A stretch of DNA of 64,000 nucleotides from Candidatus Aminicenantes bacterium. Its GTDB lineage: Bacteria > Acidobacteriota > Aminicenantia > Aminicenantales > JAFGBC01. Location of the stretch: contig OY969696.1 in the NCBI GenBank assembly GCA_963702005.1, positions 736,001-800,000 of the forward strand. Reading direction: 5' to 3'. The translations under genes were made by a program, and so were the position numbers. The notes under the pieces are model-generated. The model was not told where the DNA came from. It ran no database searches and saw nothing but the letters and a program-made list of their open reading frames with translations. Below are positions 20,150-46,771 of the stretch, in pieces (positions within the stretch are counted from its first letter, which is position 1; every line of letters begins with the position of its first letter).

Positions 20150-22184
20150 TCAGAAGCTCCGCGCGCAGATCCCGCCGCCCGCGGTCCCGACGTAGATCTT
20201 GCGGGCGGCGCCGTCGACCTGGATCGAGTTCACGCTCTTGACCGGCAGGTCGCCGGAGAGGTCCGTCCAGGTCGCCCCCTTGTCGGCGCTGTGCCAGAGG
20301 CCGTTCCAGTTCCCGACAAAAAGCTCGTTCGGATTGAGCTTGTTGACGGCCAGGCAATCGCCGGAATAGGGCGCGTTGGCGAGCTTGGTCCAGGAGCCGC
20401 CGCCGTCCGTGGAGGCGAAAATGCCTTCCCACCCGGTCGCGGCATAGACCGTGGCGGGAGAGCCGCCGGACACGGCCAGGGCGTCGATCGGGCACCCGGT
20501 CGAGGGCGGGCTCAACGAGGTCCAGTTGGCCCCGCCGTCCGTGCTTTTATGCAGGACCGGCGAGCCGGAGGAGGTCGTGCCGGCGACATAGATCGTCCGG
20601 GTATTGGAGGGGTCGAACGCGGCGGCGCAAGCCTGGCTGTTTTCATCGGTCCGAATCCGGACCTGGGTCCAAGTCAGGCCGCCGTCGGTCGAGATGAAAA
20701 CGCCCATGTAATTTTTGCCGCCGACCACGATGTATCCCGCCGCCAGGACGCGGTTGGGAACGGCCGGGTCGACGACCAGGATCAGCCCCTGGCAGCCGGC
20801 GCCGGGAAGAAGCTGTTGAAAGTTGGCGCCTCCGTCTACAGACCTGTAGACGCGGGGGGTGCTTCAGCCGTAGGTCGAGAGATAAACCCGGTTCGGGTCC
20901 GCGCTGGGGACGGCCAGGTCGGCGATGTTGTCGCTCCCCAGGAAATCGGGGAGCTTCGTCCAGCTCGCGCAGGCGTTCGCGCTCTTGAAAACCCCGACCG
21001 ACGTCGCCGCCGCGTACGCCGTGGCCGGAGCGATCGCCGAGGACGAAGAGCCGGGCATCCGGAACCCCCCGATGTTCGTCGCCAGGATCCCCGCCTGGGA
21101 CGGCAGGAAGGTTTTCCCGGCGCTGGTGCTTTTAAAGACCCCCGCCGTCGCGGAGACGTGAACCGTGCTTCCCGAGATCAAGACCTTCGACGCGAGTCCG
21201 GCGAAGCCGGTCCCGCATTTGGTCCAATCCGTTCCGCCGTTCGTGCTCTTCCAGACTTCCTTGGACCCGCCGCCGTACACGATGCTGGGATGGACCTTGT
21301 TCGAAGGCCAGGGACTCCAGGTAAGCGATATAAGACGGGCTGTTCTGCTTCTTCCAAGTGGTCCCGGAGTTGGCCGATATCGCCACCCCCGCTACCGTGT
21401 TTTGGTAGGACACCAAGATCCGGGAGGGATTCGAGGGGTCGATGGCGACCGTGTAAGCATAGTTGACTATGGTGTGGAGATCGTTCATGAATGCGGGCGT
21501 GACGTTCTTCCAGGCCCCCCCGCCGTTCGTGGAGCGGAAGACGCGGGCGCGATAATTCGAGCCGTCGTAGAAGTACCCGCAGAAGAAAATGGTGGACGGA
21601 TTCTTGGGGGAGATGGCGATATCGCGGCCGTAGGCGTAGCTCGACGTCGCCTCCATCGTCTTATGGCTCCAGGTTTGGCCGCCGTTCGTCGTCATGAAGA
21701 CGGCGAGGCATGTCTTCCAACTGGACGTGTCATAGGTATAACTCCCCGCGACGAAAATGACCTTGGGATTTTGGGGGTTGATGGCGATCCTCCCGGAATA
21801 GCCCTGCCGGTATTGGCCGAACGGAAGCTTCGTGAAGGTCGACCCTTGATCGACCGATTTATAAAGTCCGTCCGAGGCCAGGATATAGATCGTCCGCGGA
21901 TTTTTAGGGTCCAGGACGAAATCGTAAGCGTAATCGCCGAGGATGGACTTGAGGGTCCAGCTCTTGCCGTTGTTGACGGACCGGTACACCAGCCCGCGCT
22001 CGGACACCGCATAAAGCTCGGAGGGCGATTTGAGGTTGCGGGCGATGCCCATGATGTTGCCGCCGGTGGGGCCGAGCTGGGTCCAGACCGCCGCTTGATC
22101 CACAGGGCGGGCGGCGCGCATGCCGGGGCCGCCGATGAGAAGGGCGCCAAGGATTGCCCAGATATAAACGGCCGGTCTTTTCAT
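20150..22184 (-). CDS. Putative selenoprotein 1: exported Asp-box/BNR beta-propeller (~677 aa, Sec at TGA 20864-20866; one extra base near 21300)
   Basis: Reads ...LSTYG-U-STPRVYRSVDGGANFQQLLPGAGC... in frame into ORF 20150..20728; SECIS hairpin 11 nt after TGA; removing one base at 21300/21301 restores AFDKVHPSIVYGG. Confidence 0.85.
20833..20852 (-). promoter_or_regulatory. Bacterial SECIS-like hairpin
   Basis: CGUCUACA-GGUC-UGUAGACG, 11 nt after in-frame UGA. Confidence 0.88.
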
Positions 22185-22323
22185 TCTCCCTCCTCCGGAA
22201 AAATCCGCATTTTCCCTTCTCGGCCATTATAGCGGGGGGTGTCCCGGCGGTCAACAGAGGTTGAGGCTCGGCGTCCGAGCCGCTGGGAGGCGACTGGTCG
22301 TCACCCCGGCGCCGGCCCGCTCC

Positions 22324-24345
22324 CTAAAACGTCCGCTTCCAGATGCCTCCACCTTGGGTCCCGACGTAGAGGGTGTGGTTCGTCGCGTTGAAAACGAGCT
22401 GATTTACGTACGGAACGGGCAGTCCCTGGCTGACGTCGGTCCAGGTCAGGCCCCGGTTCTGGCTGTAAAAAACGTTCTGGTTGTTTCCGACGAACACTTG
22501 GTTGGGATTGTTCTTGTTGACGGCCACGGCCCGGAAACCGTAGCTGTATGTTGTGAAGGTGCACTTGGTCCAGGAGGTCCCGCCGTTCGCACTCCGCCAG
22601 AGCTCACTGTTGGTCCCGACATAGACGATATTCGAGTCCTGGGGATCGACGGCGATCGCCTGGGGCGGGTATTGAATCCCGTTCGTGATCGCGGTCCAGT
22701 TGACCCCCCCATCCGCGCTCCTATACACGAGAGCGCTAGAGTTGGAGGTATATCCGCCGACGTAGAGGATGTTCGCGTCGCCCGGCGCGACCGCCACCAC
22801 GGTCGATTGGCTGCCCTCTTGGGTGCTGATCCGGATGGGCGTCCAGTTCGTCCCCCCGTCCTTGGAGACGACGATTCCCATCGACGTGACGCTCCCTTGT
22901 TTGACTGATCCGGTAATGATAAGTTGGCTGAAGTTCTGGGGATTCGCGTAGAGGCTTCCGTATCGGCACTCGTAGAGATCGTAAATCTGTTGGAACGTCC
23001 GTCCTCCGTCTACAGACCTGTAGACGAATTCGCCCTGCGGTCAGCCGCTGGGCTTGACATAGATGGTATTGGGATTCGTGGGGTGAACGACGATGCTGGC
23101 GACGAGCGTGCTGCCCACGAATGTTCCGCAGGTCGTCCAGGCCGATCCCCCATTGGCCGTCTTAAAGAGGGCATATCCCGTGATCCCGGCGTAGATGGTG
23201 CTCGGCGAAGAAGGCGAGACGCCTAAAGCCGCGATGTTCGAGCCGCGGATGCCGGCGTGGCTGGGATTCCAGGTGGAGCCGCCGTTCTTGCTCAGGAAAA
23301 TCCCAACCTGGCTTGCCAGGTGGACATTGGACCCGGCGGCCAGGATTATGCGGCTCTCTCCATGGATGCCGTCGCTGTAAGCTTTCCAGGTGATCCCGCC
23401 GTCCGTGCTCTTGAGGACGCTGTAGACGTAATCGAGCTCGCCTCCGGCATAAAGGATCTTGGAGTTGGCGGAATCGGCCGTGATGGAGTACACATACGTG
23501 ATCCCTGGAGTCTGTTGGGCCTTCCAGCTTCCGCCGGCGTTCGTCGTCCGGGCGATGCCGTTGTTGTGGGCCACCCAGGCTTTTTTCGGGTCGTGGGCGT
23601 CTACATAGATGGCGTTACAGGCGGGATAGGTTCCGTCGAAAATCGCGGCGCCGCCGACGCTCGTCCAGGTGCTTCCTCCGTTCTTCGAAACGTAGGCGCG
23701 GCCGGTATCGACGCTGTTCTTATAGTCGTAGCCGCATAGATAAATGTAATTGGGGTTGGCCTTGGCAAAAACGACGTCATATCCATAGCCGGAATCGGCC
23801 GAGTTCGGGAACCTCTTGACGGTCCAAGACGCGCCGCCGTTCGTCGTTTTAGCGACGGCGATATCGCTTTTGTAGTTCACGTTGTCATACCGGTATGACC
23901 CGGCGATCATAATGATCTGGGGATTGGCCGGGTGGACGGCGATCCGGCCGTACCAGCCGGTAAATCCGGCCGGGAATGCGCGAACCGTGAAATTTTTGCC
24001 CTTGTCCGTGCTCTTGTGAAGATAGCCGTAGCTGAGGACGTAGATCGTGCTCGGGGTCTTGGGATCGACAGCGAGGTCGTAGATCGCCTGGGAGACGATG
24101 GATTGGCGCGTCCAGCTCGCGCCGCTGTTCGTGGATCTCCAAACCTGACTCGGCCAGCTCGAGCTCGCGGCATAGAGCTCGGCCGCCGACTTGGGATTCC
24201 GGGCCAGGCCGCGGATATCCCCTCCGTAGGGGCCGACCGGGGTCCAGGAACCGGCCCGGTCGGGCCGCTCGATCGGGGCGGAGCCGCGCCCGAAGAGGAA
24301 GACGGCGCACAGGACCGCCAGGATGATGACGACGGCTTTTTTCAT
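22324..24345 (-). CDS. Putative selenoprotein 2: exported Asp-box beta-propeller (673 aa, Sec435 at TGA 23041-23043)
   Basis: MKKAVVII signal peptide; ...VKPSG-U-PQGEFVYRSVDGGRTFQQIYDLYEC... in frame into ORF 22324..22881. Confidence 0.88.
23007..23026 (-). promoter_or_regulatory. Bacterial SECIS-like hairpin
   Basis: CGUCUACA-GGUC-UGUAGACG, 14 nt after UGA. Confidence 0.88.
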
Positions 24346-24441: not shown

Positions 24442-26463
24442 TTAAAACGTCCGCTTCCAGATGCCTCCACCTTGGGTCCCGACGTAGAGGGTGTGGTTCG
24501 TCGCGTTGAAAACGAGCTGGGCTACGTACGGAACGGGCAATCCCTGGCTGACGTCGGTCCAGGTCAGGCCTCGGTTCTGGCTGTAGAAAACGCCCTGGCT
24601 GGACCCGACAAACACCTCGTTGGGGTTGTTGTTGTTGACGGCCACAGCATCGAAATTGTAGGCGTTGGTCGGGAACGTGCATTTCGTCCATGAGGCCCCG
24701 CCGTTCGAACTCCGCCAAACTTCCCAAAAGGTCCCAACATAGACGATGTTCGGATCCTGGGGATCGATGGCGATAGATTGGGGCACGTATTGGATTCCGT
24801 TCGTGACGGAGGTCCAGTCAACCCCTCCGTTCACGCTCTTATAGACAAGCCCGGTATAGGTAGCGCTCTGGCCGCCGACATAGAGGAGGTTAGCGTTGCT
24901 GGGCGCGACCGCCGCGACGTTCGATTGGCTGCCGTCCTGGCTGCAGATTTTGACCGGCGTCCAACTCGACCCCCCGTTCGTCGAGAACACGATTCCCATC
25001 GAGGTTACGCCCCCCTGCTTGACCGAGCCCGTGATCAGGAGGAAGTTGATGTTCTGGGGGTTCGCGTAAAGGTTTCCGTACCGGCATTCGTAGAGATCGT
25101 AAATCTGCTCGAATTTCCGTCCTCCGTCTACAGACCTGTAGACGAATTCGCCCTGGGGTCAGCCGCTGGGCTTGACGTAGATGGTGTTCGGGTTCGAGGG
25201 ATGGACGACCACGCTGGCGACGAGATCGCTGCCGTAGAATTCGGTACAGGGCGTCCAGGCGGAACCCCCGTTGACCGTCTTGAGCAGAGCGTAGCCTTGG
25301 ATTCCGGTGTAAATCGTGTTCGGCGAGGAAGGGGCGATGGCGAAGGCTTTGATATTTGCCGCCCGGATTCCGTTGTGGCCGGGGTTCCAGGTCGTGCCGC
25401 CGTTCTTGCTCAAGAAGATTCCCGCTTGCGTCGCCTGGTGGACCTTGGAGCCGGCGGCCAATATTTGGCGACATTCTCCGTAGAGGCCGGTGCTCGAAGC
25501 CTTCCAGGCATTACCCCCGTCGGTGCTCTTGAGGCTGCTGTAGACCAAATTGTACTTGCCGCCCGCGTAGAGGATATTCGGGTTGGAGGAATCGGCCGCG
25601 ATGGCCGTAACATGCGTGATCTGGGGCGTCTGCTGGGCCTTCCAGCTCCCGCCGGCGTTCGTGGTCCGGGCGATGCCGCTGTCATGGCCCACCCAGGCTT
25701 TTTTCGGGTCGCGGGGATCGACGTGAATGGAGTAGCAGGCAGGGTAGCTGTTGTTGAAGACGGCCGACGAGCCGACGCTCGCCCAGGTGCTCCCGCCGTT
25801 CTTGGAAACGAAGACCCGCGCGGCTGTGACGCTGTTTTTCTGATCATACCCACAGAGATAAATGTAATTGGGGTTGCTTTTGGCGAATACGATGCCGCGG
25901 CCATAACCATAGTCGGTCAGATTGGAAAGTCTTTTGAGCGTCCAGGTCGCGCCGCCGTTCGTCGTCTTGGCGACGGCGATTTCGGAATGCCAATCGGCGG
26001 TGTTGTAATAATAAGACCCGACGACCATGATAATCTTGGGATTAGCCGGGTGGACGGCGATCCGGCCGTTGTAGGACTGGAAATCGTCCGGGAACCGATG
26101 GTTCGAGAAGGTCTTGCCTTTATCCGTGCTCGTGTAGAGATAACTTTCGCTGAGGAGGTAAATCGTGCTCGGGGTCTTGGGGTCGATGGCGAGGTCGTAA
26201 ATCCATTGCATGACGATCGATTGGCGCGTCCAGCTGGCGCCGCTGTTCGTGGATCTCCAAATCTGGCTCGGAGAACTCGAGCTCACGGCGTAGAGTTCGG
26301 CCGCCGACTTGGGATTCCGGGCCAGGCCTTGGATATCCCCTCCGTAGGGGCCGAGCGGGGTCCAGGAACCAGCCCGGTCGGGCCTGTCCGCCGGGCCGGG
26401 GCTGCGCCCGAATAGAAAGACGGCGCACAGGACCGCCAGGATGATGACGACGGCTTTTTTCAT
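24442..26463 (-). CDS. Putative selenoprotein 3: exported Asp-box beta-propeller (673 aa, Sec435 at TGA 25159-25161)
   Basis: Same length as paralog 2; ...VKPSG-U-PQGEFVYRSVDGGRKFEQIYDLYEC... in frame into ORF 24442..24999. Confidence 0.88.
25125..25144 (-). promoter_or_regulatory. Bacterial SECIS-like hairpin
   Basis: CGUCUACA-GGUC-UGUAGACG, 14 nt after UGA. Confidence 0.88.
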
Positions 26464-26642: not shown

Positions 26643-28679
26643 TTAAAAATCCCTCCGCAGAATGCCGCCCCCCGATGTTCCGACGTAGACCTGGCGGGCG
26701 GCGCCGTCGATCTCTATCGATGTCACGCCCCTGACGGGAAGACCCTCCGAAATGTCCGTCCAGGTTGCTCCTTTGTCGTTGCTGTAGGAAAAGAAGCTCC
26801 AGTTCCCCGCGAATATTTCGTTTGGGTTGGACTCATTGATGGCGATGCAATTGCATCCCCAGGGGCCGTTCTCGAGCTTGGTCCAGGTGTCCCCGCCGTT
26901 CGTGGAGACGAAAATACCCGCCCAGGAGGTTCCCAGATAGATCGTGCCCGAGACGCTCGGATCTACGGCGATGGCCTCGATCCTGGCTGAGGACGAGGGA
27001 GGAGTCAGCTCGGTCCAGCTCGCGCCCCCGTCCGTGCTCTTGTGCAGGGCCGGGGCATAGGAGGATTTATAGCCGGCGACATAGATCGTATTCCTGTTCG
27101 AAGGGTCGAACGCCGCGACTTCCAGGCAGCTGCCCGTATCGTTCCTGATCTTGATTTGTTTCCAATCGGATCCGCCGTCCGTCGACAGGAAAATCCCCAT
27201 TACATATTGACTGCCGCTGACGACATATCCTCCCGCTATGATGTGCTTCGGATCCGCGGGATCGGTCAGGAGGATGAGTCCTTGGCAGCCGGCTCCGGGC
27301 AGAAGTTGCTTAAAGCTTTTGCCTCCGTCTACGGAACTGTAGACGCGGGGGTTGCTTCAGCCGTAGGTCGAGAGGTAGACCCTGTTCGGGTCCGCGTTCG
27401 GAACGGCGAGATGAGCGATGCTGTCGCTTCCCGCGAAATTGCCGAGCTTCGCCCAGCTCCTGAAGCCGTTCTCGGTTCTAAAGATGCCGTAATTGGTGAC
27501 CGCGGCATAGGCTGTGTTTGCGGAGGCGGCGCTCGCCGATGAGCGGGGATATTGGAAATCCGCTATTTCGGCGGCTTGAATTCCCGCGTGGGAGGCTTTA
27601 AAAGAGCGGCCCGCGTTCGTGCTCTTGAAGACGCCCGCCGTGGACGTGACCTGAAGCGTATTCCCCGAGGCAATGATCCTCGATACGGTGCCGCAGAGGA
27701 CGTTCGAGAATGGCGTCCAATGATGTCCGCCGTCCTTGCTTTGATAGATCGTTTTATAGGCTCCTCCGTAGAGGACATTGGGATTGGTTTTGTCGAGGGA
27801 AAGGGACTGGATATTATAAAGGCTCTGAGGATTCGTCTGGTTCTGCCAACTGACCCCGGCGTCGGCCGTAAAGGCCACTCCGCCATAATACGGGACGAAC
27901 AATCTCGCGGCGTTCGAGGGGTCGACGGCGACGGCGTAGGCCTGGCCGTAAAATCCCGAGCCCGCGTTCATGAAGGCGGGAGTGATGTCCTTCCAGGTCC
28001 CGCCCGTATTCGTGGAGCGGTAGATGCGGGCGATGCAGCCCGTGCCGGCCCAATAATAGCCGCAGAAATAGACCGTGGACGGAGCCTGGGCGGGAATGAC
28101 GATGTCGCGCGCGCAGCCCGAATCCGAAGTCGTGTCCATCGTCTTCTGGGTCCAGCTTTTGCCTCCGTTCGTCGATTTGAAGACGGCCAGGCACGATTTG
28201 TTGGCGCTTGAATTGGTGGTATAGCTTCCCGAAACGAAGACGATATTCGGATTTTGGGGGTGGACCGCGATTCGGCCCAGAAAGGCGTATCGATGGCCGC
28301 CGAGCGGGAATTTCGTGAATGTTGTTCCTCTATCGGCGGACTTATAGAACGCTTCCGAGGATAGGACATAGACTGTCCGCGGATTCTTCGGGTCCAGCGC
28401 TATATCGGAAGCATCGATGTCGAGGTGGGACTGGCGTGTCCAACTCCCGCAGCCGTCGGCTGACCGGAAGACTTGCCCCTGCTTGGTTAGGACGTATAGT
28501 TCGCTCGGAGATTTCGGGTGGCGCGCGATGGAGATGATATTTCCGCCGTTCGGCCCGAGTCCGGTCCAGACCGAAGCGGCCTCCGGAGACGACGATGGAG
28601 AGGGCTCCGGTCCGCGAAGGCGGCCGTAGAGCACGGCGGCGCAGAAGACGGCTAAGATGACCCCCATGGCTTTTTTCAT
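26643..28679 (-). CDS. Putative selenoprotein 4: exported Asp-box beta-propeller (678 aa, Sec441 at TGA 27357-27359)
   Basis: ...LSTYG-U-SNPRVYSSVDGGKSFKQLLPGAGC... in frame into ORF 26643..27200; variant hairpin. Confidence 0.82.
27326..27345 (-). promoter_or_regulatory. Variant SECIS-like hairpin
   Basis: CGUCUAC-AGUUCC-GUAGACG, 11 nt after UGA; 7-bp stem intact, apex altered. Confidence 0.72.
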
Positions 28680-28819
28680 GGACCCTCCGTCGGAAGCCGC
28701 GTTCCTTTTATCCTGGCTGAATTATAGGGAATTCTCCGCCCGGCGGTCAAGAAACCGCGGAAAAAAGCCGTTCTCTCCTCTTGACAAGCCGCGGGGGTTT
28801 CAATAACTTAGGTAAAGCC

Positions 28820-29386
28820 ATGAGAACCAAGACAGTCCTATCCACCCTGTTCTTTTTCGCGGTTTTCTGCCTTTTGTCCTCGGCCCTCGCCTCGGCCCAG
28901 CTCGAAGTCCCCAAGGTCGTGACCGCGCGGGCCGTCTTGTCCAAGAGCGCAGTCCACGCCGGTGAGACGGTCAAAATCGCCGTCGTCCTCAAGATCGAGA
29001 AGGGCTGGCACATCAACTCGGATGATCCCGGCGACGAGTTCCTGTTCCCCTCGTCCCTCGCCCTTGACGAGGTCGCCGGCTTCGAGGTCAAGGCTTTGGC
29101 CTTCCCCAAGCCCAAGCAGGCCAAGTTCGAGTACTCCGACTTCGAGCTCCGCGTCTACGAAGACGAGGCCGTCGTGGGGGCGCTCCTCCAGGTCGCGGAG
29201 AGCGTTAAAGCCGGCGCCTACAGCCTGACGGGAGTGTTCAAGTACCAGGCCTGCAACAATACGTCGTGCATTATGCCCCAGGACCTCCGCCTCGAGATCC
29301 CGGTCGAGGTCGTGGCGGCGGGCGTCGAGACCAAGGACGTCGAGCCCGACCTCTTCGCCAAGATCGAATTCAAGGACAAAAGCTGA
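28820..29386 (+). CDS. Stand-alone DsbD N-terminal (alpha) domain protein, periplasmic
   Basis: Signal peptide, GWHINS, YQACNNTSCIMP (Cx4C); TTGACA-N17-TAACTT promoter at 28781-28809; first gene of sel operon. Confidence 0.85.
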   Translation: MRTKTVLSTLFFFAVFCLLSSALASAQLEVPKVVTARAVLSKSAVHAGETVKIAVVLKIEKGWHINSDDPGDEFLFPSSLALDEVAGFEVKALAFPKPKQAKFEYSDFELRVYEDEAVVGALLQVAESVKAGAYSLTGVFKYQACNNTSCIMPQDLRLEIPVEVVAAGVETKDVEPDLFAKIEFKDKS

Positions 29387-34010: not shown

Positions 34011-34106
34011 GGGAGGGTATAGGTTCCGGTGGGCCTTCTGGACTTCAAATCCAGCACGGGGCCGTGAAACGTCCCGGGTGGGTTCAACTCCCACACCTTC
34101 CCGCCA
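34011..34106 (+). tRNA. selC: tRNA-Sec (anticodon UCA)
   Basis: 8-bp acceptor GGGAGGGT/ACCTTCCC, anticodon arm CTGGA-CTTCAAA-TCCAG, long variable arm, T arm GTGGG-TTCAACT-CCCAC, G discriminator and CCA; 96 nt. Confidence 0.97.
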
Positions 34107-36367: not shown

Positions 36368-38833
36368 TTATCGTATGGTCACGGTCGCGGGCGGGCCCTC
36401 GCGGCCCGTTTCCGGATCGACCGCGACAAGCCGGTACGTGTAGGCCTTGGTCTTGTCCACGCCGCGCTCCCGATACTCGAATGTCGCCGCGTCGAGCGAA
36501 GCGACGAGGCGCGGCGTCGTCCCCTCGACCAGGTAGAGCCGGTAGGTCAGCCCGGCGTCGTTGGCAGGATTCCGCCGCCAGTTCAGGACGTTGACGTACT
36601 CGACGAAGAGGAGCGAGCGGTTTTCTTTCTTCGTGCCTTTGAAGTCGAGCGGTTCGTAGATGGTCCGCTGGAATTCGGCCCGGACGGCCAGGTCGCGGTC
36701 GACGGTGACGGTCAAGGGATTCGTCGTCCCCGATGCGTCTCCGCTCCAACCCATGAAATGATAGTTCGAGGCCGCCGTCGCCGTGATGGTCACTTGACTT
36801 CCCGGGCTATGTTTATAGGTTCCGGGAGCGGGCGTCGTCGTGCCGCCCGAGGTCGCGCTGATGACGAGGGCGTACTGGCCGCCCGGCCGGATTTGGCAGA
36901 GGCCTCCGCCCGGGGTCGCGGCGACGAGCGTGCCGGTCCCCTTGACGAAGTCGAGGGCGCTGACCGTTTTCACGATCAGGCCCAGGCTGTAATCGGACCA
37001 GGAACTCCCGAAATCCACGCTCTTCCGGACGCCGGCCCAGCCGCCCGCGTAAACCTGGTTGGGGAGGGCCGGATTGACCGCGATGGCCGTCGTCGAGGCG
37101 GTCAGGCAATGGGTCCAGGTCGCGCCGGAGTCCTCGCTGCGGAAGACGCCGTCGTCGGACGCGGCGTAAATACGGAAGGGCGAGACGGGATCGAGGACGA
37201 GGGCGGTGATGGGAGCCGAAAATACGTTGGTCCCCAGCCCCGTCCAGGTTTCGCCTCCGTCCGATGTCCGGCAAACCGAGCCCAGGCTGTTCTGAGTGCC
37301 TCCGACATAGATGATCTGCTCGTTCGTAGGATGCACCGCGATGGCGCAGACCATCCCGGGATCGGGCAGGAGCTTGGACGCCCAATTGGCCCCTCCATCC
37401 GTCGAGATATACAAGGTGACATTGCTGCCCGGCGGACTGCCTCCCGCGTAAAGATGATCGAAGTTCTGGGAATGAACGACCAGAACATCGAGCTGGCCCT
37501 GCTGCAACAGGCTCGTCCAGCTGTTGCCTCCATCTACAGACCTGTAGATGTAGTCTCCGGACCCTCAGCCCTGGCCGGGCGCGATCATATAAACGGTCCG
37601 GGGGTTGCCGGGATCGACGGCCGCGATATAACCCTGATCGTCGCAGCTGTAAAAATAGGGGAGGAGGGACCAGGTCCGGCCGAAGCTGTCGCTCCGATAG
37701 AATCCGCAGTTGGAAACATTGGCATAAAGGACGTTGGGGTAAGAGGCCGGTACATAGAAGGACGGGACCCGGCAGGCCCGAACCCCGGTTTGACTGGCCG
37801 CCCAGGTCGCGCCCGCGTCCGTGCTGCGGTAGACTCCGGCGTCCGAGCCGAAGAAAACCGAGCTTCCCGCCACGGCCATGCGGCGGCAGTCGCCGAGAAG
37901 ACCCGTTTCGGCGGACGTCCAGTCGATGCCGCCGTCCGTGCTCTTGTAGACCCTTTTCTGATAGCCGGCATAGAGGACGGAGGAATTCGCCGGGTCGATG
38001 GCCAGCCCGTAAGCGCAGCTGGTGTTGGCGCTGCTCTGCCAGGTCTGTCCCGAGTCCGAGGAGCGATAGACGCCCCCTTCGGTCGCGGCGAAGACCCGGG
38101 AGGGATTGTTCGGATCCGTTGCCAGGTCGTAGATCTGGGTTGAGAGCCCGCCCGTGATGTCTTGCCAGGAATCGCCGCCGTTCGTCGTCCGGTAGACGAA
38201 GAATTTAGCCGTCGTGGCGGTCCGGTAAATCCCGCTGACATAAATGACGGCCGGATTCCCGAAATTGACGCAGAGGCTGTGGCTCTCGGCGAGATCCGCG
38301 CCGGGCGAGATTCGCTTGGACGTCCAGGTTTGGCCGCCGTCCGTCGTGCGGGCTAATCCGACCGAGGCCGTCTCGGACGTTATCTGGCCGAGGATGAACA
38401 GGCTGTCGGGATCGCTGGGATGGGCGGCCAGCCGTTCGAAGCTGGTGAAGCCGCGCGGATTCGTGAGCTGCGTCCAGGACGAGCCGCCGTTTCGGGATTT
38501 GAAAAGGGAGAGCCAGCTCATGGCATAGAGGCCGCCGCTTCCCGGAGGGCCGAAGGCGAGGTCCGTGATGGGATCATTGAATAACCCGATCCTCTTCCAG
38601 GTTTTGCCTTCGTTCGCGCTCCGGTAGACCTGGGCCGGCGTCGAATCGAAGACGGCCATGAGATCGTTGGCGTTCGCGGGATTCACGGCCAGGTCGCGCA
38701 GGCCGCCGCCGTCGGGACCGATCGATTTCCAAGCGGGGTTGTCCGCCCCGGCCGGCCGCGGCCGGGTTGGAGCGGCGGGAGGGCCGAGGATGAGCGCGGC
38801 TATCAGGATCGAGAATCCAATTCCTTTTTTCAT
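36368..38833 (-). CDS. Putative selenoprotein 5: exported Asp-box beta-propeller with C-terminal InlB B-repeat-like and Fn3-like domains (821 aa, Sec423 at TGA 37565-37567)
   Basis: ...APGQG-U-GSGDYIYRSVDGGNSWTSLL... in frame into ORF 36368..37507; FMGWSGD and YTYRLVAVD tail. Confidence 0.88.
37531..37550 (-). promoter_or_regulatory. SECIS-like hairpin with compensatory pair
   Basis: CAUCUACA-GGUC-UGUAGAUG; G-C to A-U change on both arms; 14 nt after UGA. Confidence 0.9.
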
Positions 38834-38966: not shown

Positions 38967-39050
38967 TCCCCGGCCCCGGATTGATTTGTGGAAGCTTTTC
39001 TGGTAAACAAGGGAGACAGGAACCGACATCGCGGGAAGGAGGTAGGGCTC

Positions 39051-41033
39051 ATGCAGGCTTGGAAGCGCCGATTCCCGGCGGCCCTCATCAAGATCCTGAT
39101 CCTCGGCGCGCTCGCCTTTCTTTCGGTCAAGCCGGCCGCCGCCCAGAATCCGATCGACTTTACCCTCAAGGACGCGGACGGCAATGACGTCCACCTCCGC
39201 GACTTCCTGGGCAATAAGGTCGTCCTGGTCGATTTCTGGGCGACCTGGTGCGTCCCCTGCGTCAAGGAGCTGTCCCACTTCCAGCGCTTCTACGAGTCCT
39301 ATAAGGACAAGGGTTTGGTCGTCCTGGCCATTTCCGAGGACGGCCCCGAGACCGTGGCCATGGTCAAGCCCTTCCAGCGGCGCTACAAGTACACCTTCAC
39401 CATCCTCCTCGACTCCGAATCCAAGGTCCTGGCCCTCTACAACCCGAGGGTCGTCTTGCCCTACACGCTCCTCATCGGCCGCGACGGCCGGATCGCCAAG
39501 ATCCACCAGGGCTACAGCCTGGGCGACGAGAAAATGCTCGAGCAGGAGATCGTCGAGCTTCTCGAGCCCAAGGCGGAAGTCAAGGCGAGCCGGATGTCGC
39601 TGAGCGCCAGCGAATCCTTCCTGTACCGCCATTTCACCGACAAGGATTATGTCGACGACTCGCGCGAGGGCCGGCCCAACCAAATCCTCAACAAGTTCGA
39701 CCTGACCCTTAACGCGGGCGATCTCCTGGTCGGGATCAGGGCCGACGCGAACCTCGACTTCTCGCCGATGCGGCACGATTACAGCCTGGCCAAGCGGTTC
39801 GTCGAGTTCAACAAATGGAACTTCAGCCTGCGGGCCGGGGATTTCTATTACTCGGTGGGGCGGGGGCTCGCCTTCAGCCTGCTCAAGATCTTCGAGAAGG
39901 AGGGCCTCGAGTACATCATCGACACGACCATCGAGGGCGGGAAGCTCAGCTACGGCGGGAACAAGTTCGAAGCCTGGGGGGGCTGGGTCGAACGCGAGCG
40001 GACGTCGCGGGAGGCGCCGATCGTCCGGGACCTGGTCGGGGGGCTGAGCGTCGGGACCCGCGTCTTGAGCTTCGCCGACGTCAACCTCAACGTCGTCGGG
40101 GCGCGGCTCGAGCCGGGCTCCGCGTTGGGGAGCCGGAACGTCTCCATGGAAACCCTGACCTTCTCGGCGGCCAAGATCGGCAATTTCGCCAAGTTCTACG
40201 GCGAGGGCCTCCTCATCCAGAAGGAAAAATTCTATGTCCCGAACACGATCTACGGCCACGGCGTTTATCTCGAGTCGGGGCTGTTCTTCGGGAACCTGAC
40301 TCTTTTATTCGAGTTCAAGGATTACCAGGACCTCGACTTCGAATACAACCGGCCGCCCCTGCTTGAGAGCGAGCAGCTGGCCGTCGTCGCCAACCAGTTC
40401 GTGACCTCGGCCAAGGACTCGACCGGCGCCGCGATCCGGGCCGATTGGTATTTCCCGGGGGCCTCGACCCTTCTCTTTGCCAAGGGCAGCTGGATCGACG
40501 ACCTGCCCGGCCACTTTCCGCGGACGATCACCCATTTTTTCGGGGGCGTCGAGAAGAAGTTCAAGGAGACGGGCTGGCTGACCCTGATCGGCGGCTACCG
40601 AAACGAGCAGGCGAGCTCCCTGGTTTTTTACTATACGGCGGGCCGGACCTTCCATTGGCAGGGGAATCTCAGCTATCCCCTGACCAGGCGTCTGAGCCTC
40701 GAGCTCGACATCGAGGCCAAGGACTTCGACGGAACGGTCCCCTTCGGAGGGAGGTTTACCGATTATTTCGAACGGCGCTCGTACCTGTCCTTGAGCTACT
40801 CCCCCCGTCTCATCCTGACCGTCCTCTACGACCGGACGGACGACCCCGAGATCCTGGCCGTCAAGAACAAGAAGGATTGGTGGGGGACGCAGCTCGAGAT
40901 CAAACTATCCCACGCCAAGTCGATCCGGATCTTCTACGGGTCCAACAAGGGGGGCGTCAAGTGCGCGGGCGGCGTCTGCAAATTCTTCCCGCCCTTCGAA
41001 GGGTTGAGGATCGACGGCGTCCTTAGGTTCTGA
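39051..41033 (+). CDS. TlpA-like thioredoxin (WCVPC) fused to outer-membrane beta-barrel with C-terminal Cx4C (DUF6029-like)
   Basis: Signal peptide, DFWATWCVPC, alternating beta strands, GGVKCAGGVCKF, terminal Phe. Confidence 0.78.
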   Translation: MQAWKRRFPAALIKILILGALAFLSVKPAAAQNPIDFTLKDADGNDVHLRDFLGNKVVLVDFWATWCVPCVKELSHFQRFYESYKDKGLVVLAISEDGPETVAMVKPFQRRYKYTFTILLDSESKVLALYNPRVVLPYTLLIGRDGRIAKIHQGYSLGDEKMLEQEIVELLEPKAEVKASRMSLSASESFLYRHFTDKDYVDDSREGRPNQILNKFDLTLNAGDLLVGIRADANLDFSPMRHDYSLAKRFVEFNKWNFSLRAGDFYYSVGRGLAFSLLKIFEKEGLEYIIDTTIEGGKLSYGGNKFEAWGGWVERERTSREAPIVRDLVGGLSVGTRVLSFADVNLNVVGARLEPGSALGSRNVSMETLTFSAAKIGNFAKFYGEGLLIQKEKFYVPNTIYGHGVYLESGLFFGNLTLLFEFKDYQDLDFEYNRPPLLESEQLAVVANQFVTSAKDSTGAAIRADWYFPGASTLLFAKGSWIDDLPGHFPRTITHFFGGVEKKFKETGWLTLIGGYRNEQASSLVFYYTAGRTFHWQGNLSYPLTRRLSLELDIEAKDFDGTVPFGGRFTDYFERRSYLSLSYSPRLILTVLYDRTDDPEILAVKNKKDWWGTQLEIKLSHAKSIRIFYGSNKGGVKCAGGVCKFFPPFEGLRIDGVLRF

Positions 41034-41111: not shown

Positions 41112-41867
41112 TCACAAGTATTTTTGGATGATGTTATCGACCTCGGCTTTGATGTAACCCTCCCGCTTGTAGCGGATGGTCCGGTTCCGGTCCATGATGT
41201 GGGGGAGGGGGATCGAATTCCGCCGGAATTGATCATAGATGGCGTGGCTGTTGTCGTCCAGGACCGGGAAGGTCAGTTTATAAGTCTCGGACCAGGTCTT
41301 GGCGCTCCCCTCGATGACGCATAGGATGTACATGAATCCCTTGCCCTTGAGGCTCTGATAGAAGGACTCGGCCGTTTCGGCCTTCTCCCGGCAGGGGCCG
41401 CACCAGTCGGCCGAGAAATCGAGCAGGATGACCTTGCCGTGGTAGGCCGAGAGAGTCACGTCGGCGCCGTTCTGGTCCTTGGCAGTGAAATCGAGGGCGA
41501 TAGACCCTTCCTCGGTCCCGTAGGTCGCGGCCGAGGCCGTGAAGGCCAGGTCGCTCCGCGAAGCCGACCCGACCTCATAGTCGGAGGGGCTGAAGGCGTA
41601 GCCGAGCCGCGAAGGCGTGATGATGTACCCTCCGCCGGGAAGATCGCTGAAGCTGAACCGTCCGTCGCTTCCCGTCGTCGTGGACTTAGAGGCGTCCCAG
41701 GACAAGTAGACGTCGATACCGGGAAGGGCCTGGCCGCCCTGGCTGACGGGGCCGCTGAAGCTCAGCAGGGACCCCTCGGGCCCGGTCGTCGTGGAAGTCT
41801 TGCAGGCCCCCAAGGCCAGGAGCCCGATCGCGAGGGCGAGAATGGCGACCCGGTTCGTCCCGTTCAT
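41112..41867 (-). CDS. Lipoprotein with carboxypeptidase-regulatory-like domain and TlpA/redoxin domain
   Basis: Lipobox LGA|C, TGSDGRFSF, DFSADWCGPC. Confidence 0.82.
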   Translation of the reverse strand: MNGTNRVAILALAIGLLALGACKTSTTTGPEGSLLSFSGPVSQGGQALPGIDVYLSWDASKSTTTGSDGRFSFSDLPGGGYIITPSRLGYAFSPSDYEVGSASRSDLAFTASAATYGTEEGSIALDFTAKDQNGADVTLSAYHGKVILLDFSADWCGPCREKAETAESFYQSLKGKGFMYILCVIEGSAKTWSETYKLTFPVLDDNSHAIYDQFRRNSIPLPHIMDRNRTIRYKREGYIKAEVDNIIQKYL

Positions 41868-41921
41868 GATGACTCTCCTTCGGGGACTTTCGCTCTCCAG
41901 TATAGGTCAAGCTTCCGGCTT

Positions 41922-42000: not shown

Positions 42001-42009
42001 CGGCCGTCC

Positions 42010-42903
42010 TCAGCCGGCTTTGTCCGGGGCCGGCGCGGAAGCGGCCGGAGCCCTGGCCCCCAGGAATTCGTATTGGATCGAGCCCATGGCGCAGGAGTCC
42101 ACGCATTTGAGGCAGCGGATGCAGTCCGGCGAATTGGGCCGCTTGTAGACCTCGATGTCCAGCGGGCAGGACCGGGCGCACTTGCCGCAGGAGGTGCAGG
42201 TTCCCTCGTCGATCGTCATCCGGAATACGGAGGCCTTGTTGAAAAGCCCGAAGATGGCGCCCAGTGGGCAGGCCGTCCGGCAGAACGGCCTCATGCTGAA
42301 GACCATCCAGATCAGGAACAGTACCAGGACGCCCATCTTCCACTTGAACATGAAGGCGAGCTGGGCCCTGATCCCGGCGTTGAGGGCCGCGAGGGGGATG
42401 CCGGCGATCAAGGTCCCGTCGGGGCAGATCCACTTGCAGAACCAGGTCTGGCCGTAGCCGAACTCGTCGACGAGGAGGAGGGGCAGCGCGAAGACGAACA
42501 GGACCGTGATGATGTAGCGGAGGTAGGTCAGGACGCGGGGGATACGGAGCTTGGGCGATGGAATTTTATGGACGAGCTCTTGGACGAGGCCGAACGGGCA
42601 GAGCCAGCCGCAGGGAATGCGGCCGACCAGGCTCCCCACGGCCCCTAAGATCCCGAGGACGTAGAAACCGAATTGGTGGACGGCGACCGAGAGGTTGAAG
42701 CGGAGGGCCCCCAGGAAGTTCTGAAGGGAGCCGACCGGGCAGGCCCCGATCGCGGACGGGCAGGAGTAGCAGTTGAGGACGGGCAGGCAGATCCCCTTGA
42801 TGCCGCCCTGGAAGATCTCGCCCTTGAGCCAGTTGGGGAGGTAGGCGTTGAAGCCCAGGACGGCGGCGGCTTGGACCCATTTCCGGGTGCGTTGTCTGGC
42901 CAT
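42010..42903 (-). CDS. Membrane 4Fe-4S binding protein (NapH/RdxA-like)
   Basis: CxxxCP motifs (CGWLCPFG, CKWICP, CRTACPLG), TM helices, two CxxCxxCxxxC ferredoxin motifs. Confidence 0.9.
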   Translation of the reverse strand: MARQRTRKWVQAAAVLGFNAYLPNWLKGEIFQGGIKGICLPVLNCYSCPSAIGACPVGSLQNFLGALRFNLSVAVHQFGFYVLGILGAVGSLVGRIPCGWLCPFGLVQELVHKIPSPKLRIPRVLTYLRYIITVLFVFALPLLLVDEFGYGQTWFCKWICPDGTLIAGIPLAALNAGIRAQLAFMFKWKMGVLVLFLIWMVFSMRPFCRTACPLGAIFGLFNKASVFRMTIDEGTCTSCGKCARSCPLDIEVYKRPNSPDCIRCLKCVDSCAMGSIQYEFLGARAPAASAPAPDKAG

Positions 42904-42925
42904 GGTCGCGCTCCTCGGACGGGGC

Positions 42926-43060
42926 TCAGCCGATCCCGATGCAGTCCAGGCAGATCGTCACGGCCTTCTCCAGGACGGTCTGGAATTCGCCGAGCTTGAG
43001 GCCGATCAGGATCAGGACGACCGACGCCGCGAACAGGATCCAGGGCAGCTTCCGTTTCAT
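42926..43060 (-). CDS. Small CXXC membrane protein (CD1871A-like), 44 aa, below ORF-track cutoff
   Basis: MKRKLPWILFAASVVLILIGLKLGEFQTVLEKAVTICLDCIGIG; ATG overlaps upstream stop; sits before 4Fe-4S gene as typical for the family. Confidence 0.85.
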   Translation of the reverse strand: MKRKLPWILFAASVVLILIGLKLGEFQTVLEKAVTICLDCIGIG

Positions 43061-43674
43061 TTACCGCTCCCCTTGACGAGAGCGCCGATGATCTCGTCAA
43101 GCTCCGTGATGTGCTCTTTTTTAAACCCGATATGGGCGTGACTGATGACGCCGGTTGCGTCGATGAGATAGACGACCGGAATTTCCTGGACCTTATAGCG
43201 GCCCGCCATGTCCTTGGTCGTCTGGATGACGTCGGCCGCGGCCGCCCGGTCGGGGGGATCGGCCAGCATCGGGTAGCTGATCTTGAGCTTCCCGTAGAAG
43301 GGCTTGACGACCCTGGACCCCTTCTGGTCGAGGGCGATTCCGAACAGTTGAAGGCCGCCCTCGGCCTGGCCGGGCTTGGGCTGATACTTTTCGTAGAGTT
43401 GCTGCATATAGGGCATGGCCGCCCGGCAGGGGACGCACCAGGTCGCCCAGAAGTCGACCAAAACGCCGGCCGGGTAGGTCTTGGCCTGTTCCGGCTTGCC
43501 GTTGACGACCTTCTCGGTCAGCAGGCAGAGCCGGCCGTTTTCGAGGAAGACGGTATAGGTGACGTCGTCGACGCCCTTGAGGCTGAAGGGAATGAGGCGA
43601 TCGCCTTTGGCCAGGATGCCGAATACGGCCGGGGCCATCGCCAGGACTAGGGCGAGGATGATGAGCCGCTTCAT
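43057..43674 (-). CDS. TlpA family disulfide reductase, exported
   Basis: Signal peptide, DFWATWCVPC, EIP cis-Pro loop. Confidence 0.88.
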   Translation of the reverse strand: MKRLIILALVLAMAPAVFGILAKGDRLIPFSLKGVDDVTYTVFLENGRLCLLTEKVVNGKPEQAKTYPAGVLVDFWATWCVPCRAAMPYMQQLYEKYQPKPGQAEGGLQLFGIALDQKGSRVVKPFYGKLKISYPMLADPPDRAAAADVIQTTKDMAGRYKVQEIPVVYLIDATGVISHAHIGFKKEHITELDEIIGALVKGSGK

Positions 43675-44261: not shown

Positions 44262-44278
44262 GGTTCCTCTCTCTTCCT

Positions 44279-46771
44279 TCAGCGGACCGTGATCGTAGCT
44301 TCCTGACCTTCGCGGCCCGTCTTATCGACGGCCAGGAGCGCGTAGGTATAGGTCTTGTCCTTTTCGACCCCGCGCTGCCGGAACTCGAGGATGGAAGAAT
44401 CGAGCTCGGCCAGGAAACGGCGCGTCCCCCCTTCGGCGAGGTAGATCCGGTAGGTTCGGATGTCGACGTTGGCGGGGTTGGCCCGCCAGCTCAGGACGTT
44501 GATGTATTCGGCCGAGATGACGCCGCGGTTGATTTTTTTGACGCCGGTCGCGTCGAGGGGCGGATAGATGCTTCGGATGAAACCGGCCGCCAAGGACTTA
44601 TCGGAGTCCATCAGGAGCGTCAGGGGATTAACCGTCCCGGTCGCGCTCCCCGTCCAGCCCGTGAACTCGAAGTTGGGTTCGGGGAGGGCCGTGACCGAGA
44701 CCGAGCTATTCATGTCGTAGGAATGATTCCCCGGCGCGGGATCGGTCGTCCCGCCCGTCGTCGCGCTGAGGCTGAGGACGAAGCGGCTCGACTGACGATA
44801 GCGGAAGACGCCGCCCCCGTTCGTCCCGACGAACAGGGTTTTGGTCGTGGGATTGACGCCCAGGGTGAGAACGTTCCGGACCGGCAGGGTGGCATTGAGG
44901 TCCGTCCAGTCCAGGCCGCGGTTCGCGCTGGCATAGACGCCGTCCGTGCCGGCGATGGTGATGGAAGAGGTCGCGACGGGATCGATATAAATGCAGGTCA
45001 CCGGAGTGTCGGCCAGTTTGGTCCAGGTCGCGCCGCCGTTCTCGCTCCTGAACAAGCCCCCGTTCGTGCCGGCGTAGATCGTCGCCGCAGCAGCCGGATC
45101 GACGGCCAGATCCTGGATCGGGTCGGCGAAAATTCCGGCGGCGAGTTTGGTCCAGCTCGTCCCCCCGTCGAGCGATTTATAGAGGGCGCCGGCCGAGTTG
45201 ACCGTGCCGCCCAGATAGACGGTCCTGTCGTTCGCCGGATCGATCGCGACGGCGAGCGCCGCCGCGGGGGTCGAACCGGCGACCGCGGAATCCGAGACCA
45301 AGTACGTGTCCCAGGTAGTCCCGGCGTCGAGGGTTTTATGCATCGCCATGACCTGAACCCCCGACACGCTCGTGTATCCGGCGATGAACAGGTGGTTGGG
45401 ATTGCGCTCGTTGAGAAGAAGGTCCTTAAAGCTCTTGGTCAACAAATGCTCCCAGCTCTTACCGCCGTCTACAGACCTGTAGACGTCATCCGCCCCTCAG
45501 CCTCCGGCCAGAATGTAGAGCTTGTCCGGATTGGTCGGAGTGACGACGATCCGCAGGACTTTGTCGCAGCGATAGAAGTCCGGCAAGCGCTGCCAGGAAG
45601 TTCCGCTGCTGAGGCTCCGGTAGAAGCCGTTGGCTTGGAACTCGATGTAGATGGTGCCGGCCGCGGAGGGGGCAACCCCCAAGGCCGGGATGAGGGACGC
45701 CTGGATGCCGGAATGGGAGGCTTCCCAGGTTTGCCCCCCGTCCGTGCTCTTATAAACGCCGCCCGTGGAGCCGAAGTAAATCGCCGAAGCCGTGATAACG
45801 ATGGCCCGGCCGGCTCCGTAAAGGCCGACGCCGAACTCCGTCCAGTTGACGCCGCCGTCCACGCTTTTATAGCACTTCTTATCGTACCCGGCGTAGAGGA
45901 CGTCCGGGTTGGCCGGGTCGACGGCCAGCGTGTAGCCGAAGGCGAAGCCCTCGTTCCTCTGCCAGGACCGTCCGCCGTCCGTGCTGCGGTAGATTCCCCA
46001 GCTCGTCGCCGCCCAGACCTTGTCCGGGTTCGTCGGGTGGACGGCCAGGGAGGTGACCAGGTCCGTGATCTCCGTCCCGATGATCGACCAGGACGTCCCT
46101 CCGTTCACCGACTTGTACATCCGATAGATGGCGGCGACCCCGGTCGTGAGCGAGCCGGCCAGGTAGAGGGTCGACGGGCTCGAGGGGGCGACGGCCAAAG
46201 CCGTCGCCGAGCCTGTGTCCGAGCTCGGGCTGAGCTTGACGGTCGTCCAGGTCCGGCCGCCGTCCGCGGTCTTGAAGAAAGCCATGCAGTTCTTCCCCGC
46301 TAAGGCGCCGTAGGCCCCCGTGGCGTAGACGATATTCGAGTTCGAGGGGTGGATGGCCAGCTTGCCGCCGACGGAGAAGCGGTTGGCGCCGAAGGCAAAT
46401 TCGGACCAGGACACGCCCTTGTCCTCCGATTTGAGGATGCCGGTATCGGTCAGGATGTAAGCGATGTTGGCGTCGCGATTGACGGCCAGGTCCAGGGCCG
46501 TACGCTCGAACGTCGCCCGGCGTGCCCAGCTCCGGCCTCCGCTTGTCGTCCAAAAGACCTGGCTGAACCCGGTGAGCCCGGAGAGGGCCAGAAGCTCGCT
46601 TTGTTTTGAGGGGTTCAGCGCGAGCGTCGTGATGCTCCCCCCTTCCGGTCCCAGCGCTTCCCAAGCGGCGGCCGCCGGCCGGAATCTCGGGGTGGATACC
46701 CTCTCCCCCGCGCCGAACGCGAGGCTGAAGAATACCGAGAGACCGATTCCGATGGCGCCGATCTTTCTCAT
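44279..46771 (-). CDS. Putative selenoprotein 6: exported Asp-box beta-propeller with InlB B-repeat-like and Fn3-like tail (830 aa, Sec425 at TGA 45497-45499)
   Basis: ...ILAGG-U-GADDVYRSVDGGKSWEHLLTK... in frame into ORF 44279..45445; first gene of apparent operon with redox genes. Confidence 0.88.
45466..45485 (-). promoter_or_regulatory. Bacterial SECIS-like hairpin
   Basis: CGUCUACA-GGUC-UGUAGACG, 11 nt after UGA. Confidence 0.88.

Follow-up and report, generated by a model that had tools for sequence, protein, structure and literature searches.

The window analysed in this work, a stretch of 64,000 nucleotides from a Candidatus Aminicenantes bacterium, contains six minus-strand genes (g1 to g6) of one family of Asp-box propeller proteins. 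Each carries exactly one internal in-frame TGA, at a homologous site and with GGC before it, as the initial annotation had described. These candidate selenocysteine (Sec) codons lie at 20864..20866 in g1, 23041..23043 in g2, 25159..25161 in g3, 27357..27359 in g4, 37565..37567 in g5 and 45497..45499 in g6. Beyond the TGA the frame is open in all six genes and leads into the Asp-box motif [V/I]Y[R/S]SVDGG, and the offsets between the split open reading frames (138, 162, 162, 159, 60 and 54 nt) were reproduced from the ORF list. Read through, g2 (22324..24345) would encode an exported tandem Asp-box propeller of 673 aa with Sec at residue 435 (U435), and g3 (24442..26463), which shares 74% identity with g2, another protein of 673 aa (U435). 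The predicted products of g4 (26643..28679), g5 (36368..38833) and g6 (44279..46771) have 678 aa (U441), 821 aa (U423) and 830 aa (U425), respectively, that of g5 ending in an InlB B-repeat and a further domain. The TGA and its flanking hairpin are intact in g1 (20150..22184), but this gene is not the single open frame that had been claimed: a 1-nt frameshift near 21295-21300 splits an N-terminal ORF (21132-22184) from the C-terminal frame that holds the TGA (20150-21280). In relatives' contigs, one letter was left out at 21300 in those from three of four runs.

The terminal stop codons of g1 and g6 are TGA as well, and no hairpin follows either of them. Reassignment of TGA to a sense codon throughout the genome, as in code 4 or 25, has a negligible chance of being correct, since g1 and g6 terminate in TGA, family genes have a single internal TGA that is always at the same site, and a sense reading fuses unrelated frames with many odd codons.

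Genes for Sec synthesis and insertion had been noted in the middle of the cluster, and profile searches together with ARAGORN and Rfam bear this out. On the plus strand lie selA (29433..30842; Pfam SelA PF03841, E 9.9e-143), selD (30858..32063; TIGR00476, 364 bits), selB (32075..33998, start ATG at 32075; TIGR00475, 278 bits) and a tRNA-Sec with anticodon UCA (34011..34106; ARAGORN; Rfam RF01852, 73.8 bits). SelD is of the Cys type (NAGCASK) and has a Cys-rich N-terminal extension. In this assembly the reading frame of selB shifts by 1 nt near 32186-32197; in relatives' contigs one letter was left out at 32190 in those from two of four runs, and because the contigs compared are only 90-99% alike, the break may be real in this strain. 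A search of the genome for Sec-type FdhA found none. At another place in the genome lies a conventional thioredoxin-fold candidate (UxxC), with a GGU-loop hairpin at an equal distance. Several other genes are interspersed with the family: an exported protein resembling the DsbD N-terminal domain (28781..29386, plus strand), a TlpA/ResA-like thioredoxin-fold domain (WCVPC) fused to a DUF6029-like region (38988..41033, plus strand), a protein combining a CarboxypepD_reg domain with a TlpA/ResA-like domain (WCGPC; 41112..41867, minus strand), a NapH/MauN-like membrane ferredoxin-type protein (42010..42903, minus strand) and a TlpA/ResA-like thiol:disulfide oxidoreductase (WCVPC; 43057..43674, minus strand). 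TlpA-like genes were found within 10 kb only of g5 and g6 and of none of the 12 other TGA paralogues, and no carbohydrate-active genes were found near family genes.

Each TGA is followed by a 20-nt hairpin, whose spacing we reproduced: it starts 11 nt past the codon in g1 (20833..20852, minus strand, as are all six; CGTCTACA-GGTC-TGTAGACG), g4 (27326..27345) and g6 (45466..45485), and 14 nt past it in g2 (23007..23026), g3 (25125..25144) and g5 (37531..37550; CATCTACA-GGTC-TGTAGATG, with a compensatory A-U as second stem pair). The stem has 8 bp and the loop is GGUC, except in g4 (7 bp, AGUUCC), and the g2 stem can be extended to 10 bp. The same RNA doubles as the coding sequence for the Asp-box VYRSVDGG. 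A published model of the bacterial SECIS element (bSECIS) specifies an apical loop of 3-9 nt, a stem of 4-16 bp, a free energy of at most -7.5 kcal/mol, a G among the first two loop nucleotides and 16-37 nt from UGA to loop (PMC13188914 Fig. 2A). The family hairpins agree with this consensus on all four of its criteria (PMC13188914 section 5), with loops of 4-6 nt (GGUC, GUUC or AGUUCC) that have a G within the first two positions, followed by G or U, stems of 7-10 bp, a UGA-to-loop distance of 18-22 nt and free energies from -9.5 to -13.6 kcal/mol. Free energy alone is not distinctive: among 198 other Asp-box windows, at least 15 reach -11.8 kcal/mol or below. The hairpin was not found in any of the six non-TGA paralogues.

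Codon choice within the hairpin points to a constraint on the RNA. Its Arg codon is AGG in 30/30 sequences, its Ser codon TCT in 31/32 and its Val codon GTA in 30/31, codons that make up 15%, 6% and 6%, respectively, of the Arg, Ser and Val codons of the family; the Gly-Gly residues just after are invariant and their codons vary freely. Judged by these sequence patterns, the rare-codon hairpin RNA is under selection. In addition, 99.2% of the stem cells are paired, versus 14-54% for displaced partner columns, and compensatory changes occur in two stem pairs (G-C to A-U in four sequences, A-U to U-A in one). None of 500 shuffles matched the covariation score, which draws on only five cells in two pairs because the hairpin sequences are almost identical.

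The prototype for such an element is UGA140 of E. coli fdhF, in which a hairpin with the apical loop GGUC likewise lies within the ORF straight after the UGA. The 8-mer CAGGTCTG is common to the fdhF SECIS and the family hairpin, and the loop GGUC, counted from the U of UGA, occupies nt 22-25 in fdhF and nt 23-26 or 26-29 in the family. The two differ in that the upper stem of the family is a perfect helix of 8-10 bp, whereas the fdhF stem has a bulged U; in that the family element encodes a propeller Asp-box and the fdhF element part of a molybdoenzyme; and in that the family element, unlike that of fdhF, is present in fourteen nearly identical copies in a single genome.

The initial annotation had counted six paralogues; the six in the window are confirmed, but the total for the genome is 14, with TGA at one alignment column in all of them. 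In a scan that accepted any stop codon, the stop at this site was TGA in 34/34 cases, always accompanied by the hairpin and corresponding to 32 distinct sites, 14 in this genome and 18 in other genomes or metagenome contigs, and the in-frame UGA with a continuing ORF was conserved in 14/14 paralogues and 18/18 distinct external sites. At the aligned position, TGA or Cys was found in homologues, and in no case TAA or TAG. ORFs ending in Gly exactly at the site account for 37 of the best 120 database matches and for 18 of the best 150 representatives at 50% identity. As had been anticipated, standard annotation misses the family, and dozens of its genes are represented in public databases solely by truncated ORFs of about 430 aa. 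We counted 53 database ORFs as Sec forms, for 35 of which TGA was assumed with the DNA unseen. Cys occupies the site in nine full-length relatives, in several of them within the same G-C context, and the Cys forms include P0027, P0030, P0039, P0040 and one paralogue of this genome. In the tree, Cys clades sit within Sec clades, and 21 of the 83 related proteins have another residue at the site (Ser, Thr, Gly, Asn, Ala and others). It looks from this distribution as if the Sec form were ancestral in this subfamily and had been replaced repeatedly by Cys or other residues, and on the same sequence comparison the Sec site is dispensable for the fold. No partner Cys conserved across subfamilies was found. 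The TGA forms also follow the Sec machinery: SelA is present in 4/4 genomes that have them, none was found in the 22 relatives without a SelA over the cut-off, and in one genome (G001) a family member lies beside selA on the same contig.

These comparisons bear on two readings in which Sec is not inserted. It is highly improbable that the UGA is a real stop, yielding a truncated protein of about 430 aa, perhaps with a separately initiated C-terminal piece, or that the genes are pseudogenes. Public gene callers predict just such truncated ORFs and selB is frameshifted in this assembly; however, 32 distinct genes at 33-78% protein identity keep the codon, always as TGA, the frame downstream is open and conserved over 230-400 codons, the rare-codon hairpin appears to be under selection, Cys forms exist at the site, and in the model the cut would land within a blade. 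Stable hairpins 3' of stop codons can stimulate readthrough, and a near-cognate tRNA (Trp, Cys or Arg) could in principle decode the UGA independently of SelB, placing a residue other than Sec. We regard this as very unlikely, given that loop sequence and spacing fit the bSECIS model as well as the fdhF element to which SelB binds, that the sel operon lies among the window genes and selA beside the G001 member, that every genome in which TGA forms were seen has SelA, and that Sec-type and Cys forms alternate, as is usual for selenoproteins.

We consider it highly likely that the propeller genes encode true selenoproteins, whose UGA is decoded as Sec by way of a SECIS; the computational checks suggested with the initial annotation all supported this. 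Each mRNA has one UGA and, 11 or 14 nt downstream, a SECIS-like hairpin with an 8-10 bp stem and the loop GGUC. By analogy with canonical bacterial Sec decoding, SelB carrying Sec-tRNA(Sec), the genes for both of which are in the cluster, would bind this hairpin and insert selenocysteine. The fourteen genes, each with a UGA and an E. coli-like hairpin, are thus very probably a selenoprotein family missing from current catalogues.

The predicted products, of 670-830 aa, have a signal-like hydrophobic segment at the N-terminus and, in the AlphaFold model (pLDDT 91.2, pTM 0.89), two seven-bladed propellers in tandem. The best PDB matches of the model are all GH74 enzymes (Foldseek E 1e-28, TM 0.63-0.67), which upholds the Asp-box propeller fold proposed earlier and makes it more exactly a GH74-like tandem of seven-bladed propellers. 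GH74 xyloglucanases (2cn3, 5fkq, 4lgn) share this fold, and a profile search connects them to the family (E 1e-46); their identity to it is just 16-17%. They have a conserved catalytic Asp pair in the interdomain cleft, and we know of no solved GH74 enzyme that contains Sec. Owing to the repeats, HMMER alignments to GH74 chains lose register, and the catalytic Asp pair is not mappable through them. In the model, the residues on the two sides of the TGA make up neighbouring strands of a single blade. The predicted position of Sec, which comes just after an invariant Gly, is the strand 2-3 loop of blade 2 in the C-terminal propeller. This loop is predicted to face away from the Asp-boxes, a geometry that would correspond to the active-site face of glycosidase Asp-box propellers. 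A product truncated at the UGA would consist of the N-terminal propeller and one and a half blades.

Databases label these ORFs after Ycf48/HCF136 or the Sortilin Vps10 domain, which have Asp-box blades in common with the family, and in family proteins the Pfam models PSII_BNR and Sortilin-Vps10 exceed their cut-offs. Those proteins are single propellers of seven or ten blades, whereas the family is tandem. We rejected identity with Ycf48/HCF136 on the grounds of this architecture and of NCBIfam Ycf48 scores of 37.5-51.3 bits against a cut-off of 326; the label 'photosystem II stability/assembly factor-like' stems from resemblance at the level of the repeats alone. The scores for NF045728 (F510_1955 family glycosylhydrolase) are 183, 187, 172, 228 and 210 bits against a cut-off of 175, and they represent repeated-blade matches because each is a sum of 5-6 partial stretches of the model, which has 246 positions. 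To our knowledge, the bacterial selenoproteins described so far are, with few exceptions, oxidoreductases or proteins with a thioredoxin fold. The claim that no described selenoprotein family has the propeller fold agrees with a 2026 catalogue of 119 selenoprotein families, none of which has it (PMC13188914 Table 1). Two of its entries, the FCYXU-type TonB-dependent receptor (NF049945) and the GSU2204/MtrB-PioB outer-membrane barrel (NF041027), are also predicted exported selenoproteins without a thioredoxin fold (PMC13188914 Table 1), but they have other folds and other Sec motifs, and no propeller.

Our preferred guess as to what the Sec would do, though less likely than not, is that it serves as a redox-active or ligand-binding residue and that a neighbouring periplasmic module keeps it in the reduced state; for this module we propose the three TlpA/ResA-like reductases, the DsbD-N-like protein and the NapH-like ferredoxin protein. 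A further possibility is that, in addition to directing Sec insertion, the UGA and SECIS act as a selenium-sensing switch, the full two-propeller protein being made when selenium is available and a shorter form with another role when it is not. Such a switch would account for the retention of a costly codon in so many paralogues although relatives tolerate many residues at the site, and one nearly identical element in fourteen paralogues would allow a regulon-like response; we nevertheless think it improbable, as the truncated product would end within a blade and would probably misfold. In its fullest and still doubtful form, the redox or ligand-binding reading would make the Sec on the active-site face the key residue of a new extracytoplasmic selenoenzyme or of a selenium-based binding site, serviced by a dedicated periplasmic electron chain running from the NapH-like protein to the TlpA/ResA-like reductases. 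The propeller family, and not formate dehydrogenase, would then be what keeps the Sec machinery in Aminicenantes-related bacteria, as its 14 copies, the failure to find a Sec-type FdhA and the Cys-type SelD would suggest.

Annotation pipelines overlook the whole family. With 14 paralogues, no Sec-type FdhA found and SelD of the Cys type, it would dominate the selenoproteome of this organism, and with a secreted tandem beta-propeller whose only Sec follows an invariant Gly, selenoproteins would gain a fold not seen among them before and, probably, new chemistry.

With the internal TGA read as selenocysteine (Sec, U), five of the six minus-strand propeller genes of the window become single open frames of 673–830 residues, in each of which that TGA is the only internal one: g2 (22324-24345, U435), g3 (24442-26463, U435), g4 (26643-28679, U441), g5 (36368-38833, U423) and g6 (44279-46771, U425). 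The initial annotation had described all six as whole through the TGA, which holds for g2–g6 but not for g1 (20150-22184), whose TGA at 20866-20864 lies in the same context as in the other five but whose frame is shifted by 1 nt near 21295-21300. Its other observations on the cluster were reproduced: GGC precedes the TGA at the homologous site in all six genes, the offsets from the TGA to the downstream ORF were recovered at the same values from the ORF list, a 20-nt hairpin follows each of the six TGAs after 11 nt (g1, g4, g6) or 14 nt (g2, g3, g5), and the Sec genes lie mid-cluster, with selA (29433-30842), selD (30858-32063), selB (32075-33998, ATG at 32075) and tRNA-Sec (34011-34106) found between g4 and g5.

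The hairpin, C[G/A]TCTACA-GGTC-TGTAGA[C/T]G, is coded by the same nucleotides as the Asp-box [V/I]Y[R/S]SVDG; in g4 it has an AGUUCC loop on a 7-bp stem. Because other Asp-box windows of this GC-rich family fold at equally low energy (at least 15 of 198 at ≤ –11.8 kcal/mol), folding energy was rejected as a discriminator, and codon choice, register and covariation were used as tests. A codon count over 32 distinct sites revealed that rare codons are near-constant within the hairpin: Arg is AGG in 30/30 (15% of family Arg codons), Ser is TCT in 31/32 (6% of family Ser codons), Val is GTA in 30/31 (6% of family Val codons) and Tyr is TAC in 31/31, while the two invariant Gly residues just after the hairpin use four different codons. 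Stem cells are paired in 99.2% of cases, versus 14–54% with the partner column slid. Compensatory changes are seen in two stem pairs, one going from G-C to A-U in four sequences with a Val to Ile change in the protein, the other from A-U to U-A in one sequence with Tyr to Phe and Val to Glu changes, and the covariation score was reached by none of 500 shuffles. The six non-TGA paralogues have no such hairpin at this Asp-box and use common codons instead, even where the amino acids are identical (LYRSVN), and no hairpin follows the TGA with which g1 and g6 end. These patterns in the aligned sequences argue that the hairpin is selected as RNA. Around position 2304 of L023, a metagenome contig, a homologue has Asn in place of the Sec and retains, in register with the family hairpins, a hairpin of 5–6 bp (GTCTCCAGGTCCCTGGAC), which may be the relic of a lost SECIS.

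The bSECIS consensus model for bacterial elements, as set out in PMC13188914, has a loop of 3–9 nt on a stem of 4–16 bp, a G within the first two loop positions that is usually followed by G or U, a UGA-to-loop distance of 16–37 nt and a free energy of ≤ –7.5 kcal/mol. The family hairpins lie within every one of these bounds, in keeping with their initial description as SECIS elements. They also resemble the prototype in E. coli K-12 fdhF, whose hairpin after UGA140 has the loop GGUC from nt 22: in the family GGUC also forms the loop, with its first base at nt 23 or 26, and both elements contain the 8-mer CAGGTCTG. When the whole genome was scanned loosely for a UGA with a hairpin behind it, 152 candidates came up, nearly all of them off-frame noise; among them were 14/14 family sites and a single UxxC candidate of thioredoxin-like type. 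The latter, an exported thioredoxin/DsbD-C-terminal-like protein on the minus strand of the source genome (G000:C1, about 2163250-2164093; locus L107, 400-1093), carries its in-frame TGA within the motif GGUGSC and has a 9-bp hairpin with the loop GGU from nt 22. We regard this protein as a probable UxxC selenoprotein of the conventional kind, and its hairpin is an internal control for the type of element that the host SelB should read.

The family extends well beyond the window, which sits on one contig of 4.31 Mb. The six genes initially reported stand, but the genome total is 14 paralogues with TGA at one alignment column. Further paralogues carry Cys (one), Ser (two), Thr (one), Asp (one) or an insertion (one) at the site, and in one more non-TGA paralogue the frame is broken within a G-run. 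Among the best 120 matches from a set of 5.8 billion proteins, 37 were ORFs of 414–462 aa ending in G at the site, 34 of them on other contigs, and 18 of the best 150 representatives of a 50%-identity library also end in G there; in full-length matches the site was located by BLAST mapping. DNA was compared in three other genomes (G001, G040, G425) and ten metagenome contigs (L015-L024), where all stops at the site are TGA codons, with GGC or GGT just before them and the hairpin after them. Scanning with TAA, TAG and TGA all allowed yielded 34 sites, 32 of them distinct, with TGA in 34/34, which extends the initial observation of TGA, and never TAA or TAG, at this position. The metagenome loci were found with a closer alignment subset (A2) as opposed to the 37-sequence alignment (A1), and are skewed to g2/g3-like and g1/g4-like subgroups because A2 was the query. 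A phylum-wide search returned 3/401 genomes at E ≤ 1e-40, with two candidates scored per genome, and is weak evidence of distribution.

The co-occurrence with Sec machinery foreseen in the initial annotation was borne out. SelA is above cut-off in 19/41 genomes of the relatives set and is present in 4/4 genomes with TGA forms (14 in the source genome, five in G001, one in G040 and two in G425), and one family query at E ≤ 1e-30 found no TGA form in any of the 22 relatives that lack an above-cut-off SelA. A family member adjoins selA on one contig of G001. Since no Sec-type FdhA was found in the source genome and its SelD is of the Cys type (NAGCASK), the propeller family may be what the Sec machinery chiefly serves. 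SelD also has an N-terminal extension of ~50 residues that is Cys-rich (...CLC). The frame of selB shifts by 1 nt near 32186-32197 (GAAGAAGAAGCTCCGGGGG). Logan contigs from wetland-metagenome runs, 90–99% alike, have one letter fewer at 32190 in 2/4 runs and at 21300, within g1, in 3/4 runs. Because these relatives lack the extra letters, the selB and g1 frameshifts are either consensus errors or strain-private, not features of the lineage; together with a third frameshift, in a G-run near genome position 1977880, they suggest residual indel errors in the assembly.

A quick maximum-likelihood tree was built from the region N-terminal to the site, with 83 rows comprising 53 ORFs ending at the site, nine forms with Cys and 21 with some other residue (filter: full-length rows only, site mapped at ≥75 bits). 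Sec-type forms occur over the whole tree, with the Cys and other forms nested within, and the starred branches force at least 12 changes at the site; four database relatives with Cys (P0040, P0136, P0027, P0030) form a clade within a Sec clade. This nesting fits an ancestral Sec that was replaced repeatedly, and the many non-Cys replacements show that the residue is dispensable for folding.

Pfam matches to the proteins are Sortilin-Vps10, BNR and PSII_BNR repeats, and the sole NCBIfam match, NF045728, is summed from partial matches. An AlphaFold2 model from a 33-sequence alignment (pLDDT 91.2, pTM 0.89) has 14 four-stranded blades, and since the solved structures that match it best are without exception GH74 xyloglucanases (E 1e-28, TM 0.63–0.67, identity 16–17%), the predicted fold is a tandem seven-bladed propeller, which agrees with the Asp-box propeller proposed initially. 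In the model, U435 lies in the loop between strands 428–433 and 439–444, which are the second and third strands of blade 2 in the C-terminal propeller; a stop at the site would therefore halve a blade. An invariant Gly immediately precedes the Sec, and the subfamilies share no conserved Cys that could pair with it in a selenenylsulfide. In glycosidase Asp-box propellers, PMC2716378 places the Asp-boxes across strands 3–4, on the face opposite the active site; combined with the up-and-down topology, this would put the 2–3 loop holding the Sec on the active-site face. Placing the Sec on the GH74 catalytic residues was abandoned, the sequence alignments being out of register. All members have a signal-like hydrophobic segment at the N-terminus, and g5 and g6 additionally carry an InlB B-repeat and another domain at the C-terminus, a long form common to G040 and G425. 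The final ~95 residues of g5 (window 36368-36950) and g6 (44279-44870), past the InlB B-repeat, have no Pfam match; their conservation extends to the long forms in G001, G040 and G425.

The genome has seven TlpA/ResA-like loci, and the interval from g5 to g6 (window 38988-44261) contains three of them, with the motifs WCVPC, WCGPC and WCVPC; a DUF6029-like region is fused to one of the three and a CarboxypepD_reg domain to another. The same interval holds a NapH/MauN-like ferredoxin protein and an OmpW-like outer-membrane barrel, and a DsbD-N-like protein adjoins selA. The TlpA/ResA-like, NapH/MauN-like and DsbD-N-like neighbours suggest a periplasmic reducing chain that could keep an exposed Sec reduced; no TlpA-like gene was found within 10 kb of the other 12 TGA paralogues. 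We tentatively favour a redox or ligand-binding role for the Sec, at clearly less than even confidence; the residue may instead be a nucleophile in a hydrolase-like cleft or part of a selenium-dependent switch. Long ORFs overlap here on opposite strands, 38943-40259 (–) and 38988-41033 (+), and the minus-strand one is probably spurious because family matches were found for the plus-strand ORF only; spurious overlapping ORFs are common in this 60% GC genome. Just upstream of g6, window 47411-49498 (–) encodes an exported 695-aa DUF7948 and SBBP-repeat propeller with no in-frame TGA.

In the literature searched, we found neither an Asp-box/BNR or beta-propeller bacterial selenoprotein nor a propeller selenoprotein from Aminicenantes. 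Propeller, sialidase, sortilin, glycosyl, Asp-box and BNR do not occur in the main text of PMC13188914 or of the deep-Sep paper, PMC12013277. The 119-family Table 1 of PMC13188914 contains no such family, consistent with the initial statement that no described family is known to have this fold. Our analysis thus predicts a new family of bacterial selenoproteins with canonical decoding, a prediction that we consider real and well supported, and what makes the family interesting is its fold, its extracytoplasmic location and the number of its copies.
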